64,000 nucleotides of DNA, taken from the NCBI RefSeq assembly GCF_003334315.1, contig NZ_QOWR01000006.1; one strand, 5' to 3'. A model generated the notes under the pieces. It saw only the letters and a program-made list of their open reading frames with translations. It did not search any database and was not told where the DNA came from. Both the position numbers and the translations under genes were made by a program. Within the stretch, counting starts at the first letter, position 1. Each line of letters begins with the position of its first letter. Below, piece by piece: positions 5,283-48,975 of the stretch. This DNA comes from Escherichia coli (lineage in GTDB: Bacteria; Pseudomonadota; Gammaproteobacteria; Enterobacterales; Enterobacteriaceae).

Positions 5283-5380
<98 letters not shown>

Positions 5381-20540: not shown

Positions 20541-21110
20541 ATGAAACGACTCATTGTAGGCATCAGCGGTGCCAGCGGCGCGATTTATGGCGTGCGCTTA
20601 TTACAGGTTCTGCGCGATGTCACAGATATCGAAACGCATCTGGTGATGAGCCAGGCAGCGCGCCAGACCTTATCCCTCGAAACGGATTTTTCTCTGCGCG
20701 AAGTGCAGGCATTAGCCGATGTCACGCACGATGCGCGCGATATTGCCGCCAGCATCTCTTCCGGTTCTTTCCAGACGCTGGGGATGGTGATTTTACCCTG
20801 TTCAATCAAAACCCTTTCCGGCATTGTCCATAGCTATACTGATGGCTTACTGACCCGTGCGGCAGATGTGGTGCTGAAAGAGCGTCGCCCGTTGGTGCTC
20901 TGCGTGCGTGAAACACCATTGCACTTAGGCCATCTGCGTTTAATGACTCAGGCGGCAGAAATCGGTGCGGTGATTATGCCTCCCGTTCCGGCGTTTTATC
21001 ATCGCCCGCAATCCCTTGATGATGTGATAAATCAGACGGTTAATCGTGTTCTTGACCAGTTTGCGATAACCCTTCCTGAAGATCTCTTTGCCCGCTGGCA
21101 GGGCGCATAA
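20541..21110 (+). CDS. ubiX: Flavin prenyltransferase UbiX, 189 aa
   Basis: GISGASGAIYG flavoprotein motif; recognised sequence. Confidence 0.95.
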   Translation: MKRLIVGISGASGAIYGVRLLQVLRDVTDIETHLVMSQAARQTLSLETDFSLREVQALADVTHDARDIAASISSGSFQTLGMVILPCSIKTLSGIVHSYTDGLLTRAADVVLKERRPLVLCVRETPLHLGHLRLMTQAAEIGAVIMPPVPAFYHRPQSLDDVINQTVNRVLDQFAITLPEDLFARWQGA

Positions 21111-21118
21111 CTCCGCTG

Positions 21119-21141
21119 TTGCCCTGTTTCAGGGCAATTTT
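21119..21141 (+). terminator. Intrinsic terminator downstream of ubiX
   Basis: Hairpin ttgccct-gtttc-agggcaa followed by tttt. Confidence 0.65.
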
Positions 21142-21291
21142 GCAACCGCGATCAAATCCTCGACATTTTGTTTCTGCCATTCAATCGAAACGCTGCGATT
21201 CAACCGCTATACCTGCTATCTTCAACTTCAGGACAATAATGCAACGTCTTATTAACATATTTAACGTTGAATGTTACTGTTGTCGTCAAGA

Positions 21292-21307
21292 TGGCATAAG
21301 ACCTGCA
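21292..21307 (+). promoter_or_regulatory. sigma54 (-24/-12) promoter candidate for argT
   Basis: tGGcat-aagac-ctGCa: GG and GC are spaced exactly as in the TGGCAC-N5-TTGCA consensus, ~70 bp upstream of the argT ATG; argT is a known Ntr-regulon gene. Confidence 0.65.
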
Positions 21308-21375
21308 TGAAAGAGCCTGCAAACACACAACACAATACACAACATAAAAAAGCCATTTTCACTTGAGGGTTATGT

Positions 21376-22158
21376 ATGAAGAAGTCGATTCTCGCTCTGT
21401 CTTTGTTAGTCGGTCTCTCCACAGCGGCTTCCAGCTATGCGGCGCTACCGGAGACGGTACGTATCGGAACCGATACCACCTACGCACCGTTCTCATCGAA
21501 AGATGCTAAAGGTGATTTTGTTGGCTTTGATATCGATCTCGGTAACGAGATGTGCAAACGGATGCAGGTGAAATGTACCTGGGTTGCCAGTGACTTTGAC
21601 GCGCTGATCCCCTCACTGAAAGCGAAAAAAATCGACGCTATTATTTCGTCGCTTTCCATTACCGATAAACGTCAGCAGGAGATTGCCTTCTCCGACAAGC
21701 TGTACGCCGCAGATTCTCGTTTGATTGCGGCCAAAGGTTCACCGATTCAGCCAACGCTGGATTCACTGAAAGGTAAACATGTTGGTGTGCTGCAGGGATC
21801 AACCCAGGAAGCTTACGCTAACGAGACCTGGCGTAGTAAAGGCGTGGATGTGGTGGCCTATGCCAACCAGGATTTGGTCTATTCCGATCTGGCTGCAGGA
21901 CGTCTGGATGCTGCGTTACAAGATGAAGTTGCTGCCAGCGAAGGATTCCTCAAGCAACCTGCTGGTAAAGATTTCGCCTTTGCTGGCTCATCAGTAAAAG
22001 ACAAAAAATACTTCGGTGATGGCACCGGTGTAGGGCTACGTAAAGATGATGCTGAACTGACGGCTGCCTTCAATAAGGCGCTTGGCGAGCTGCGTCAGGA
22101 CGGCACCTACGACAAGATGGCGAAAAAGTATTTCGACTTTAATGTCTACGGTGACTGA
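21376..22158 (+). CDS. argT: Lysine/arginine/ornithine-binding periplasmic protein ArgT, 260 aa
   Basis: Signal peptide plus recognised sequence; paralogue of the adjacent hisJ. Confidence 0.95.
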
Positions 22159-22216
22159 TACGTCGCTGGGAAGCTGTACCTGATGGAATGATCATCATGG
22201 TGCACGCCAGGTTTGT

Positions 22217-22233
22217 TGCACTATCGTGGTGCA
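22217..22233 (+). promoter_or_regulatory. NtrC-like enhancer palindrome upstream of hisJ
   Basis: tgcactatcgtggtgca resembles the NtrC consensus TGCACCA-N3-TGGTGCA; lies ~100 bp upstream of a weak -24-like TGGCAC at 22315. Confidence 0.4.
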
Positions 22234-22378
22234 TTGAAATGCATACTTAAGCATTTTTAATGAAAAATAATACGTCTAACGGGGCGGGATATTTTGCCTT
22301 GATGGTCAATTTTATGGCACGATAAGTGTAACAAACCTGTAAATATTCCCTATAAAAAGACTGTCAGTTGAGGACATT

Positions 22379-23161
22379 ATGAAAAAACTGGTGCTATCGC
22401 TCTCTCTGGTTCTGGCCTTCTCCAGCGCAACTGCGGCATTTGCTGCGATTCCGCAAAACATCCGCATCGGTACCGACCCGACCTATGCGCCATTTGAATC
22501 AAAAAATTCACAAGGCGAACTGGTTGGCTTCGATATCGATCTGGCAAAGGAATTATGCAAACGCATCAATACGCAATGTACGTTTGTCGAAAATCCGCTG
22601 GATGCGTTAATCCCGTCCTTAAAAGCGAAGAAGATTGACGCCATCATGTCATCGCTTTCCATTACGGAAAAACGTCAGCAAGAAATAGCCTTCACCGACA
22701 AACTGTACGCTGCCGATTCTCGTTTGGTGGTGGCGAAAAATTCTGACATTCAGCCGACAGTCGAGTCGCTGAAAGGCAAACGGGTAGGCGTATTGCAGGG
22801 CACCACCCAGGAGACGTTCGGTAATGAACATTGGGCACCAAAAGGCATTGAAATCGTCTCGTATCAGGGGCAGGACAACATTTATTCTGACCTGACTGCC
22901 GGACGTATTGATGCCGCGTTCCAGGATGAGGTCGCCGCCAGCGAAGGTTTCCTCAAACAACCTGTCGGTAAAGATTACAAATTCGGTGGCCCGTCTGTTA
23001 AAGATGAAAAACTGTTTGGCGTAGGGACCGGCATGGGCCTGCGTAAAGAAGATAACGAACTGCGCGAAGCACTGAACAAAGCCTTTGCCGAAATGCGCGC
23101 TGACGGTACTTACGAGAAATTAGCGAAAAAGTACTTCGATTTTGATGTTTATGGTGGCTAA
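22379..23161 (+). CDS. hisJ: Histidine-binding periplasmic protein HisJ, 260 aa
   Basis: Signal peptide plus recognised sequence. Confidence 0.95.
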
Positions 23162-23185
23162 TCGCCATCGGTGAAAGAAAGCCCG

Positions 23186-23209
23186 CTCCCTTCGGGTAAC
23201 CGGAGGGAG
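23186..23209 (+). other. Stable stem-loop in the hisJ-hisQ spacer
   Basis: ctcccttcgg-gtaa-ccggagggag: 10-bp stem with one G-U pair and no following U-tract, so not a classic terminator. Confidence 0.55.
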
Positions 23210-23250
23210 ACAAGAGGCGGTAATTCACCACACACGACAGGACAGGCAGC

Positions 23251-23937
23251 ATGTTGTATGGGTTTTCAGGTGTTATTTTACAGGGTGCGCTCGTCACGCT
23301 GGAGCTGGCTATCAGCTCTGTAGTGCTCGCTGTAATCATCGGTTTAATTGGCGCTGGCGGTAAGCTCTCGCAAAATCGGCTTTCGGGGCTGATTTTCGAA
23401 GGGTACACCACGCTGATTCGTGGCGTGCCGGACTTAGTGTTGATGCTGCTGATTTTCTACGGTTTGCAGATTGCGCTAAACACGGTGACGGAGGCGATGG
23501 GCGTCGGGCAGATTGATATCGATCCGATGGTCGCTGGTATTATCACTCTCGGTTTTATCTACGGTGCTTATTTTACCGAAACGTTCCGTGGTGCTTTTAT
23601 GGCAGTGCCGAAAGGACATATAGAGGCGGCGACGGCGTTCGGTTTTACTCGTGGGCAAGTGTTTCGGCGGATCATGTTTCCGGCGATGATGCGTTACGCC
23701 CTGCCAGGCATTGGCAACAACTGGCAGGTGATCCTCAAATCTACCGCACTGGTTTCGTTACTCGGCCTGGAAGATGTGGTCAAAGCCACCCAACTGGCAG
23801 GCAAAAGTACCTGGGAACCGTTCTATTTCGCCATCGTCTGTGGCGTGATTTACCTGGTTTTCACCACTGTTTCCAATGGTGTGCTGCTGTTCCTTGAGCG
23901 CCGCTACTCCGTGGGTGTGAAGAGGGCTGACCTGTGA
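23251..23937 (+). CDS. hisQ: Histidine/Lys/Arg/Orn ABC transporter permease HisQ, 228 aa
   Basis: Recognised sequence; multi-TM permease. Confidence 0.95.
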   Translation: MLYGFSGVILQGALVTLELAISSVVLAVIIGLIGAGGKLSQNRLSGLIFEGYTTLIRGVPDLVLMLLIFYGLQIALNTVTEAMGVGQIDIDPMVAGIITLGFIYGAYFTETFRGAFMAVPKGHIEAATAFGFTRGQVFRRIMFPAMMRYALPGIGNNWQVILKSTALVSLLGLEDVVKATQLAGKSTWEPFYFAIVCGVIYLVFTTVSNGVLLFLERRYSVGVKRADL

Positions 23938-24650
23938 TCGAAATCTTACATGAATACTGGAAACCGCTGCTGTGGACCGACGGTTATCGCTTTACTGGTG
24001 TGGCGATCACTCTGTGGCTGCTTATTTTGTCGGTAGTGATAGGCGGAGTCCTGGCGCTGTTTCTGGCGATTGGTCGTGTCTCCAGTAATAAATACATCCA
24101 GTTTCCAATCTGGTTATTTACCTATATTTTTCGCGGTACGCCGCTGTATGTTCAGTTGCTGGTGTTCTATTCCGGCATGTACACGCTTGAGATTGTTAAG
24201 GGAACCGAATTCCTTAACGCTTTCTTCCGCAGTGGCCTGAACTGTACCGTGCTGGCGCTGACGCTTAACACCTGCGCTTACACTACCGAGATTTTTGCTG
24301 GGGCAATCCGTTCGGTTCCGCATGGGGAAATTGAAGCCGCCAGAGCCTATGGCTTCTCGACTTTTAAAATGTATCGTTGCATTATTTTGCCTTCTGCGCT
24401 GCGTATTGCGTTACCGGCATACAGCAACGAAGTGATCCTGATGCTGCACTCTACTGCGCTGGCGTTTACGGCCACTGTGCCGGATCTGCTGAAAATAGCC
24501 CGCGATATTAACGCCGCCACGTATCAACCTTTTACCGCCTTCGGCATTGCCGCGGTGCTCTATTTAATCATCTCTTATGTCCTGATCAGCCTCTTTCGCA
24601 GAGCGGAAAAACGCTGGTTGCAGCATGTGAAACCTTCTTCAACGCACTGA
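23934..24650 (+). CDS. hisM: Histidine/Lys/Arg/Orn ABC transporter permease HisM, 238 aa
   Basis: GTG start overlapping the hisQ stop; recognised sequence. Confidence 0.95.
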
Positions 24651-24657
24651 GAATACG

Positions 24658-25431
24658 ATGTCCGAGAATAAATTAAACGTTATCGATTTGCACAAACGCT
24701 ACGGCAAACATGAAGTGCTGAAAGGGGTCTCACTGCAAGCGAATGCCGGAGATGTAATAAGCATCATCGGATCGTCGGGATCGGGGAAAAGTACCTTTCT
24801 GCGCTGCATTAACTTCCTCGAAAAACCGAGTGAAGGGTCGATCGTGGTCAATGGCCAGACGATCAATCTGGTGCGCGACAAAGACGGTCAACTCAAAGTC
24901 GCCGATAAAAATCAACTGCGCTTACTGCGCACACGCCTGACGATGGTATTCCAGCACTTCAATCTCTGGAGCCATATGACGGTGCTGGAAAACGTCATGG
25001 AAGCGCCGATTCAGGTGTTGGGCCTGAGCAAGCAGGAAGCGCGCGAGCGGGCGGTGAAGTATCTGGCAAATGTCGGGATAGACGAACGTGCGCAGGGGAA
25101 ATATCCGGTGCATCTTTCCGGCGGTCAGCAACAGCGTGTTTCTATCGCGCGGGCGCTGGCGATGGAACCGGAAGTTTTACTGTTTGATGAACCTACCTCG
25201 GCGCTCGATCCTGAACTGGTAGGCGAAGTGTTGCGTATTATGCAGCAACTGGCAGAAGAGGGGAAAACCATGGTGGTAGTGACTCACGAAATGGGCTTTG
25301 CTCGCCATGTTTCTACTCATGTCATTTTCCTCCATCAGGGGAAAATAGAAGAAGAGGGCGCGCCGGAGCAGTTATTTGGCAACCCGCAAAGCCCTCGTCT
25401 GCAACGGTTCCTTAAGGGATCGCTGAAATAA
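24658..25431 (+). CDS. hisP: Histidine/Lys/Arg/Orn ABC transporter ATPase HisP, 257 aa
   Basis: Walker [13 protein letters not shown] signature LSGGQQQRV, Walker [12 protein letters not shown]. Confidence 0.97.
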
Positions 25432-25437
25432 TTTCCT

Positions 25438-25467
25438 CTCCGGTGGCTAACGCTGCCGGAGTATTTT
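25438..25467 (+). terminator. Probable terminator downstream of hisP
   Basis: ctccgg...ccggag stem with a long loop, followed by tatttt; the structure is not ideal. Confidence 0.45.
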
Positions 25468-25627
25468 CATGGGGAATTTGCGAGTCAGCTTCCGCTGAAA
25501 TGTAAAAGTTACAGTCCGCTAAAAATACTTCTGAATTCGCTGTCCAAAGATAAAAACTGCCTGCTGCATTGGGTGTTAATCGTGGTTATTGTCGCGTCAT
25601 CTTAAATTTGAGGGGTGACGGAACGCC

Positions 25628-48923: not shown

Positions 48924-48975
48924 CCGAATTTCGATTAACGCTCGGTCCCTGACCGAGAAAACTGGAAGCATGCTA

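Follow-up and report, generated by a model that had tools for sequence, protein, structure and literature searches.

Tandem paralogous genes argT and hisJ of Escherichia coli encode two binding proteins for one polar-amino-acid permease and are controlled differently

Why should a locus that encodes a single membrane and ATPase set carry two periplasmic binding-protein genes side by side, where did the second gene come from, and does each answer to its own signals? These questions are raised by argT and hisJ, which precede hisQ, hisM, and hisP in the 64,000-nt stretch of Escherichia coli DNA analyzed here (the window; contig NZ_QOWR01000006.1 of assembly GCF_003334315.1). A sequence-only reading of the window had described the pair as a classic tandem duplication giving two substrate specificities to one ATP-binding cassette (ABC) transporter. 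Our results support that description in its gene identities, its paralogy, and its separate control regions. It is almost certain that argT and hisJ are tandem paralogues that supply two binding proteins to one polar-amino-acid ABC importer, are controlled differently, and arose by duplication at the site between ubiX and hisQ. The gene identities, the paralogy, the architecture, the motif positions, and the phylogenetic distribution reported below come from the present analysis.

The identity of the genes was examined from several sides. According to the list of open reading frames (ORFs), argT and hisJ are adjacent and co-oriented on the + strand, and each encodes 260 amino acids (aa), as had been read from the sequence (Table 1). 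Exactly one hisQ-hisM-hisP set lies 3' of hisJ, with each of the three genes occurring once and scoring above its NCBIfam cutoff, which bears out the single permease of the earlier description. The spacers are non-coding and measure 265 nt (ubiX-argT), 220 nt (argT-hisJ), and 89 nt (hisJ-hisQ). In an E. coli genome that is 100% identical over positions 21100-25500, the RefSeq annotation gives the order ubiX, argT, hisJ, hisQ, hisM, hisP, rpnB, and its gene coordinates coincide with our ORF coordinates. The two copies are clearly told apart by the NCBIfam equivalog models: ArgT reaches 582 bits with the ArgT model (cutoff 440) and 425 with the HisJ model (cutoff 459), and HisJ reaches 599 bits with the HisJ model (cutoff 459) and 435 with the ArgT model (cutoff 440). 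In the PDB, ArgT matches LAO, the protein that binds lysine, arginine, and ornithine (1LAF/2LAO/1LST), and HisJ matches 1HSL/2M8C. The mature chains of these structures begin at residue 23 of both precursors, and since the matches run from residue 23 onward, the signal peptide is fixed at 22 residues. Both translations have hydrophobic N-termini ending in A-x-A, the form expected of secreted class-II substrate-binding proteins (SBPs).

The downstream genes are equally well defined. HisQ and HisM score 479 bits (cutoff 319) and 465 bits (cutoff 306), each cross-matching the model of the other, while HisP scores 573 bits (cutoff 466) and matches PDB 1B0U with E = 1e-158. The HisP translation contains the Walker A (GSSGSGKST), the LSGGQQQR signature, and the Walker B of an ABC ATPase. 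In the K-12 annotation, HisQ, HisM, and HisP are listed as subunits of both the lysine/arginine/ornithine transporter and the histidine transporter. This is the textbook argT-hisJ-hisQMP locus of E. coli, and nothing contradicts the identification. The 4.4 kb around it have a match in 5,426 of 5,426 complete E. coli genomes in RefSeq, over at least 80% of the query in 5,425 of them; many of these matches are 100% identical, and identity is at least 95% in all records but two. Compared with K-12 MG1655, there are 11 substitutions in 4,390 nt and none in either non-coding control region. Because both control regions are identical to those of K-12, data obtained in K-12 can be transferred directly to the window.

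The two binding proteins are closely similar along their whole length. BLASTP aligned ArgT and HisJ with 164 identities in 236 positions (69%), 84% positives, 0 gaps, and E = 1e-129; the ungapped full-length comparison gave 175 of 260 identical residues (67%), and the mature parts gave 165 of 238 (69%). Low pairwise identity had been named in advance as the outcome that would tell against a duplication. What was found is two genes on the same strand, 220 nt apart, whose products are 67-69% identical without gaps, so the tandem paralogy holds. A value of 70% has been published for the two proteins, both of which dock on HisQMP2 (PMC6640053, PMC3102756, PMC5708682). At the DNA level identity is 68.6%, but only 43% at third codon positions, with a synonymous divergence (dS) of ~2.1, which is saturated, and a nonsynonymous divergence (dN) of 0.23. 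The longest run of identical nucleotides is 14 nt. The genes are real and old paralogues.

The same does not hold for the DNA in front of them. The earlier description gave each gene its own upstream control region, and this is correct, with one qualification: regions of 265 and 220 nt, both non-coding, carry different signals, but they are not alignable paralogous copies. The pairwise comparison proposed for them yielded a local alignment score of 18, against 17.5 +/- 2.4 for shuffled sequences, and 216 of 500 shuffles reached it; a global MAFFT alignment of the two regions was meaningless. Since the local score equals the shuffle mean, the two control regions have no recognizable common origin.

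The region upstream of argT contains a sigma-54 promoter. The sequence TGGCATAAGACCTGCA at 21292-21307 has the -24 GG and the -12 GC of such promoters at a 10-nt spacing, and the 17-mer that includes it is the one reported as the sigma-54 site 5' of argT in E. coli by chromatin immunoprecipitation sequencing (ChIP-seq) (PMC4591121); the same sequence is bound in Salmonella (PMC3844500). The published motif coordinate, 2425890, is the centre of the motif if the numbering of that paper is 1,978 lower than that of NC_000913.3, and this offset, derived from the argT sigma-54 motif, was used to convert ChIP peak positions to the window. An argT-type motif lies at -75 to -97 in 21 of the 22 assessable tandem loci of Enterobacteriaceae. 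A similar one is found at -77 to -134 in 15 of the 16 assessable single-copy loci of other Enterobacterales, and the chance expectation is ~0.06 matches per 300 nt. Because the motif is present in tandem and single-copy loci alike, argT appears to have kept the ancestral position and promoter.

NtrC, the activator expected at such a promoter, leaves a weaker trace here. The 265-nt region has no match to the NtrC consensus with up to three mismatches, except for a palindrome resembling a terminator of ubiX. In K-12, NtrC ChIP-seq recorded a weak 5.4-fold peak at argT (PMC4066584), which converts to 21248-21328 and covers the sigma-54 promoter. The exception, at 21120-21136, reads TGCCCTG-TTT-CAGGGCA (a perfect 7-bp palindrome) followed by ATTTTG and starts 10 nt past the ubiX stop codon. 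Since this three-mismatch candidate combines a palindrome with a T-run immediately past ubiX, it probably represents the terminator of ubiX and was rejected as an NtrC site. A separate block, TTATTAACATATTTAACG at 21250-21267, lies 25-40 nt 5' of the sigma-54 box, is kept across many genera of Enterobacteriaceae, and falls within the weak NtrC peak. It may be a candidate IHF-type bending site or a low-affinity activator site. Additionally, the argT leader contains a C/A-rich stretch, conserved across genera and one of only five such stretches in the window, which is a putative target of the type that the small RNA GcvB recognizes with its GU-rich R1 seed. argT is listed as a verified or conserved R1 target of GcvB (PMC9299463).

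A different set of signals is found in the 220 nt between argT and hisJ. The site TGCACTATCGTGGTGCA is the only match to the NtrC consensus with a single mismatch in the whole window. The strong 23.7-fold NtrC peak assigned to hisJQMP in K-12 (PMC4066584) converts to 22168-22248 and contains it, and near-consensus NtrC sites occur in the argT-hisJ spacer of most genera. This strongest NtrC site of the locus sits ~0.9 kb 3' of its only sigma-54-bound promoter, argTp. Transcription of hisJQMP has been assigned to a sigma-70 promoter under weak repression by ArgR, which binds two ARG boxes 3 bp apart, located 17 bp 5' of the -35 box (PMC6640053). The window has a pair of ARG-box-like 18-mers at that spacing, presumed to be the ArgR operator, each with 4 mismatches to the consensus and together the second-best tandem pair in the window. 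Given that the predicted boxes end at 22276 and that the published spacing is 17 bp, the -35 box is placed exactly at 22294, where the hexamer TTGCCT begins. TTGCCT (22294-22299) is conserved across genera and is likely the sigma-70 -35 box of hisJ.

The hisJ promoter block also contains a sigma-54-like box, TGGCACGATAAGTGTA at 22315-22330, which in Escherichia has GT in place of the -12 GC and so falls short of a complete sigma-54 promoter. Its TGGCAC can be aligned in 17 of 21 genera, and the -12 GC is intact in only about half. No sigma-54 binding at hisJ has been reported in E. coli (PMC4591121) or Salmonella (PMC3844500). Most of the hisJ control region is bracketed by a 21-bp long-range inverted repeat, CAGGTTTGTTGCACTATCGTG at 22208-22228 and CACGATAAGTGTAACAAACCTG at 22319-22339, with one arm overlapping the NtrC site and the other overlapping the sigma-54-like box. 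The 146-nt region spanning it, folded as RNA, reaches -50.7 kcal/mol (z = -5.8). The repeat occurs in E. coli and E. albertii and is absent from 20 of 20 other genera examined. It was rejected as a conserved functional element because it is confined to these two species, and it may be an Escherichia-specific promoter rearrangement.

Table 1. Features of the argT-hisJQMP locus, with positions in the 64,000-nt window, and the single-copy loci used for comparison
Feature	Position	Strand	Details and basis
argT sigma-54 promoter	21291-21307	+	ATGGCATAAGACCTGCA, GG-N10-GC intact, 69-85 nt 5' of argT ATG; motif match and published ChIP-seq
C/A-rich stretch in argT leader	21316-21345	+	CCTGCAAACACACAACACAATACACAACAT, putative GcvB R1-seed target type; sequence, conserved across genera
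argT	21376-22158	+	Precursor of periplasmic LAO protein; signal peptide 1-22, mature 238 aa
NtrC consensus site	22217-22233	.	TGCACTATCGTGGTGCA, 146-162 nt 5' of hisJ ATG; 1 mismatch to consensus
ARG-box-like 18-mer pair	22238-22255 and 22259-22276	.	3 bp apart; presumed ArgR operator of hisJ
hisJ core promoter block	22294-22330	+	TTGCCT 22294-22299 and sigma-54-like box 22315-22330
hisJ	22379-23161	+	Signal peptide residues 1-22, mature 238 aa
Intercistronic hairpin	23186-23209	+	10-bp stem, GUAA loop; RNA fold
C/A-rich ribosome-binding region of hisQ	23226-23250	+	CACCACACACGACAGGACAGGCAGC; read from sequence
hisQ	23251-23937	+	Integral membrane subunit, 228 aa; NCBIfam, annotation
hisM	23934-24650	+	Second integral membrane subunit, 238 aa, GTG start; NCBIfam, annotation
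hisP	24658-25431	+	ATP-binding subunit, 257 aa; NCBIfam, PDB 1B0U
Intrinsic terminator-like hairpin, then T-run, operon end	25438-25461	+	Fold z = -4.6
Single-copy loci, Enterobacterales outside Enterobacteriaceae			L007, L036, L043, L046, L053, L057, L060, L066, L067, L074, L076, L099, L107, L113, L114, L121

The origin of the pair was approached through its distribution. Species-representative genomes were scanned for a C-terminal peptide shared by the binding proteins, KKYFDF(N/D)VYG, which gave at least 120 stretches, and gene arrangements were read by tblastn of the E. coli proteins onto the stretches listed. The arrangement ubiX-argT-hisJ-hisQMP was found in Escherichia, Citrobacter, Enterobacter, Kluyvera, Pseudocitrobacter, Superficieibacter, Pseudescherichia, Pluralibacter, Siccibacter, Cedecea, and Shimwellia. 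Mangrovibacter and Phytobacter also have argT followed by hisJ, with ubiX lying outside the retrieved stretches. The arrangement ubiX-one SBP-hisQMP was found in Yersinia, Serratia, Rahnella, Hafnia, Erwinia, Pantoea, Mixta, Tatumella, Dickeya, Pectobacterium, and Brenneria, where the single gene is often labeled hisJ. Among the matches listed, the tandem occurs only in Enterobacteriaceae. In a neighbour-joining tree (238 columns, 200 bootstraps) with homologues from Pseudomonas, Leeia, and Trinickia as outgroups, the ArgT clade received 99.5% bootstrap support, the HisJ clade 100%, and the clade of all binding proteins at the locus 100%. Since all binding proteins at the locus form one clade, a local origin is supported. 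Mean identities are 70.6% between ArgT and HisJ, 73.8% between ArgT and the single-copy proteins, and 72.9% between HisJ and the single-copy proteins. These results fit a duplication close to the base of the Enterobacteriaceae, after which both copies diverged; this is the timing we infer.

The ligand pocket was compared as well. In the LAO protein the ligand is sandwiched between Tyr14 and Phe52 (PMC3102756), and the HisJ equivalent of Phe52 is Leu52 (PMC10609312). The window sequences carry Tyr14 and Phe52 in ArgT and Leu52 in HisJ, as published. All ArgT and all single-copy proteins have Phe at residue 52, and Leu was found only in HisJ of Enterobacteriaceae among the matches listed. The presence of Phe52 in all ArgT and single-copy proteins suggests that the LAO-type pocket is ancestral. 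The single-copy proteins combine Phe52, as in ArgT, with Glu18, as in HisJ (Ser18 in Hafnia), and are variable at residue 190; judged from these residues, they may have a broader, LAO-like specificity.

It is important to consider the points that limit this account of the pair and its control. The genome sample was selected by a C-terminal peptide pattern and is not exhaustive, so its counts apply to the matches listed. No order of branching among ArgT, HisJ, and the single-copy proteins gains support, every alternative receiving at most 11% bootstrap. The ARG-box matches are weak by sequence alone, each box departing from the consensus at 4 of its 14 specified positions. Neither control region yielded a consensus promoter in a simple sigma-70 scan, and the terminator scan found no convincing terminator or anti-terminator between argT and hisJ, the only convincing terminator being the one after hisP. 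Because the literature lists an argT-hisJQMP unit and the spacer lacks a convincing terminator, we infer that transcription from argTp reads through into hisJQMP.

The poorly supported branching order bears directly on the timing of the duplication, which could be older, with later losses. The ancestor of the Enterobacterales would then have had both genes, and the families of Yersinia, Erwinia, Pectobacterium, and Hafnia would each have lost one. This is consistent with the neighbour-joining tree, in which a clade of ArgT and HisJ that excludes the single-copy proteins is not recovered (2.5% bootstrap), and with the single-copy proteins being about equidistant from ArgT (73.8%) and HisJ (72.9%). 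It nevertheless requires several independent losses, each leaving one gene in the same place with the same sigma-54 promoter, and no tandem was found in genomes outside the Enterobacteriaceae among the matches listed. Moreover, ArgT and HisJ (70.6%) are farther apart than either is from the single-copy proteins, as would be expected if both copies diverged faster after a later duplication. We consider the older duplication unlikely, though it deserves some weight.

A second alternative is that argT is a homologous binding-protein gene which came from another lineage by horizontal transfer and was inserted next to hisJ. The upstream regions, which have no detectable homology, would agree with such an origin, and the copies are so old, with dS saturated, that no direct trace of a duplication junction is left. 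Against it, all binding proteins at the locus form one clade with 100% bootstrap relative to Pseudomonas, Leeia, and Trinickia, argT occupies the ancestral place beside ubiX with the ancestral sigma-54 promoter, and the two genes have the same length with 0 gaps. Transfer is very improbable on these grounds. Ongoing gene conversion (concerted evolution) in place of selection on independently diverging copies, as suggested by two segments of 82-87% DNA identity (gene positions ~241-330 and ~511-600), is effectively refuted and has a negligible probability, because argT/hisJ identity within genomes (0.719; third positions 0.481) barely exceeds that between genomes (0.711; 0.455), those segments are as similar between genomes (e.g., 0.82 within E. 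coli versus 0.84 between genera) and fall where the proteins are 85-90% identical, no identical run exceeds 14 nt, and the ArgT and HisJ clades are cleanly separate.

Duplication at the ubiX-hisQ site thus remains the preferred explanation, and the working of the system can be outlined on that basis, with the ligand specificities, the sharing of HisQMP2, and the regulation by NtrC, sigma-54, ArgR, and GcvB taken from the literature. The LAO protein, i.e., ArgT, binds lysine, arginine, and ornithine, and HisJ binds histidine tightly and arginine weakly (PMC6640053, PMC3102756, PMC5708682). ATP hydrolysis by HisQMP2 drives import for both (the same three papers, citing work of the Ames laboratory). 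ArgT and HisJ would be exported by means of their 22-residue signal peptides, and each would close around its ligand in the periplasm. Loaded ArgT or HisJ would then dock on the same HisQ-HisM-HisP2 complex, encoded just downstream, whose ATP hydrolysis would power uptake. argT would be transcribed in nitrogen limitation from the sigma-54 promoter activated by NtrC, probably with continuation into hisJQMP, and hisJQMP would in addition have its own promoter in the 220-nt spacer, with the NtrC site, the ArgR operator, and the sigma-70 elements. After transcription, GcvB would repress argT and hisQ, and a hairpin 3' of hisJ would probably keep the amount of binding protein above that of the membrane subunits. 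The pair itself would derive from one ancestral binding-protein gene, duplicated between ubiX and hisQ at or near the base of the Enterobacteriaceae. This regulatory logic, with nitrogen limitation acting on argT, arginine on hisJ, and GcvB on argT and hisQ, follows from the motifs together with the cited experiments.

A further step can be proposed tentatively, as a possibility that we regard as doubtful. The duplicated unit may once have included the sigma-54 promoter, so that hisJ had an NtrC/sigma-54 promoter of its own. The -24 box (TGGCACGATAA) and an NtrC enhancer ~100 bp upstream would be what is still conserved of it in Enterobacteriaceae, while the -12 GC would have decayed in Escherichia and some other genera and the region would now be a sigma-70/ArgR promoter. 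The strong NtrC site would then either enhance argTp from a downstream position or modulate the sigma-70 promoter of hisJ. In the same proposal, the ancestral single protein had the LAO-type Phe52, and the histidine specialization with Leu52 is derived.

Expression of the permease genes is probably set apart from that of hisJ by the spacer between hisJ and hisQ. The 89-nt spacer folds with -33.4 kcal/mol (z = -3.4), and a strong GC-rich hairpin is present between the binding-protein gene and hisQ in nearly all taxa examined (~40 loci), with unrelated sequences; the position and the structure of the hairpin are kept while its sequence is replaced. The Citrobacter spacer (L004) has an insert resembling a repetitive extragenic palindromic (REP) element or a bacterial interspersed mosaic element (BIME), and the spacers of Erwinia (L057) and Pantoea are structured and 185-245 nt long. 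The corresponding spacer of Salmonella carries a REP element. From the Salmonella literature on REP elements, the hairpin after hisJ is probably an mRNA-stabilizing or attenuating element that keeps the binding protein in excess over the membrane subunits. A REP element in the E. coli spacer was considered and rejected, because the hairpin sequence differs and there is no match to the REP consensus there. The only such match in the window is a perfect element at 5299-5335, in the yfcL-mnmC intergenic region. Immediately before hisQ, ACGACAGGAC in the C/A-rich ribosome-binding region is conserved across genera, and hisQ is reported to be repressed by GcvB through the R1 seed (PMC9299463).

Further downstream, the GTG start codon of hisM overlaps the hisQ stop codon by 4 nt (GTGA, 23934-23937), an arrangement that suggests coupled translation of these two membrane subunits. 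A scan against Rfam found no RNA family within the argT-hisQMP locus. The sole match at the gathering level in the window is the nuoG RNA motif (RF01748) at 48926-48968 in the nuo operon, with 48 bits against a gathering score of 33.

The argT-hisJQMP system is already known in detail as a classic tandem duplication. The histidine permease of Salmonella Typhimurium and E. coli (TC 3.A.1.3) has the same gene order and protein lengths, ~70% identity between its SBPs, and one HisQMP2 used by both, with a promoter of the sigma-54/NtrC type at argT and another for hisJ; the window shows no substantial departure from it. One detail in which E. coli differs from Salmonella is the hisJ-hisQ spacer, where it has a different hairpin that is not a REP element. 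The E. coli artPIQM-artJ system is likewise a polar-amino-acid ABC importer served by a pair of paralogous binding proteins. These proteins, ArtI and ArtJ, rank next among the NCBIfam matches of ArgT and HisJ (E ~1e-52), with much lower similarity and scores far below the equivalog cutoffs. By analogy with HisQMP2, the two are supposed to use ArtQMP2 in common, and the art cluster is regulated by ArgR (PMC6640053). Unlike argT and hisJ, the art binding-protein genes are not adjacent tandem copies placed before the permease, and they have no sigma-54/NtrC promoter. The single-SBP locus of other Enterobacterales has the same ubiX-SBP-hisQMP context, a hairpin before hisQ, and a sigma-54 motif about as far from the start codon; it differs in having one binding protein with a mixed pocket (ArgT-like Phe52, HisJ-like Glu18).

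The argT-hisJQMP locus is one of the founding models for ABC transporters and for the idea that a single permease can serve more substrates through duplicated binding proteins. The comparative results add modest refinements to it. Among the matches listed, the tandem is limited to the Enterobacteriaceae; the sigma-54 promoter seems to be ancestral, as does the Phe52 pocket; the sigma-54-like box at hisJ appears to be decaying under a retained NtrC site; and the intercistronic hairpin shows turnover of its sequence between taxa. Together, these comparative results could form a case study of regulatory rewiring after gene duplication.

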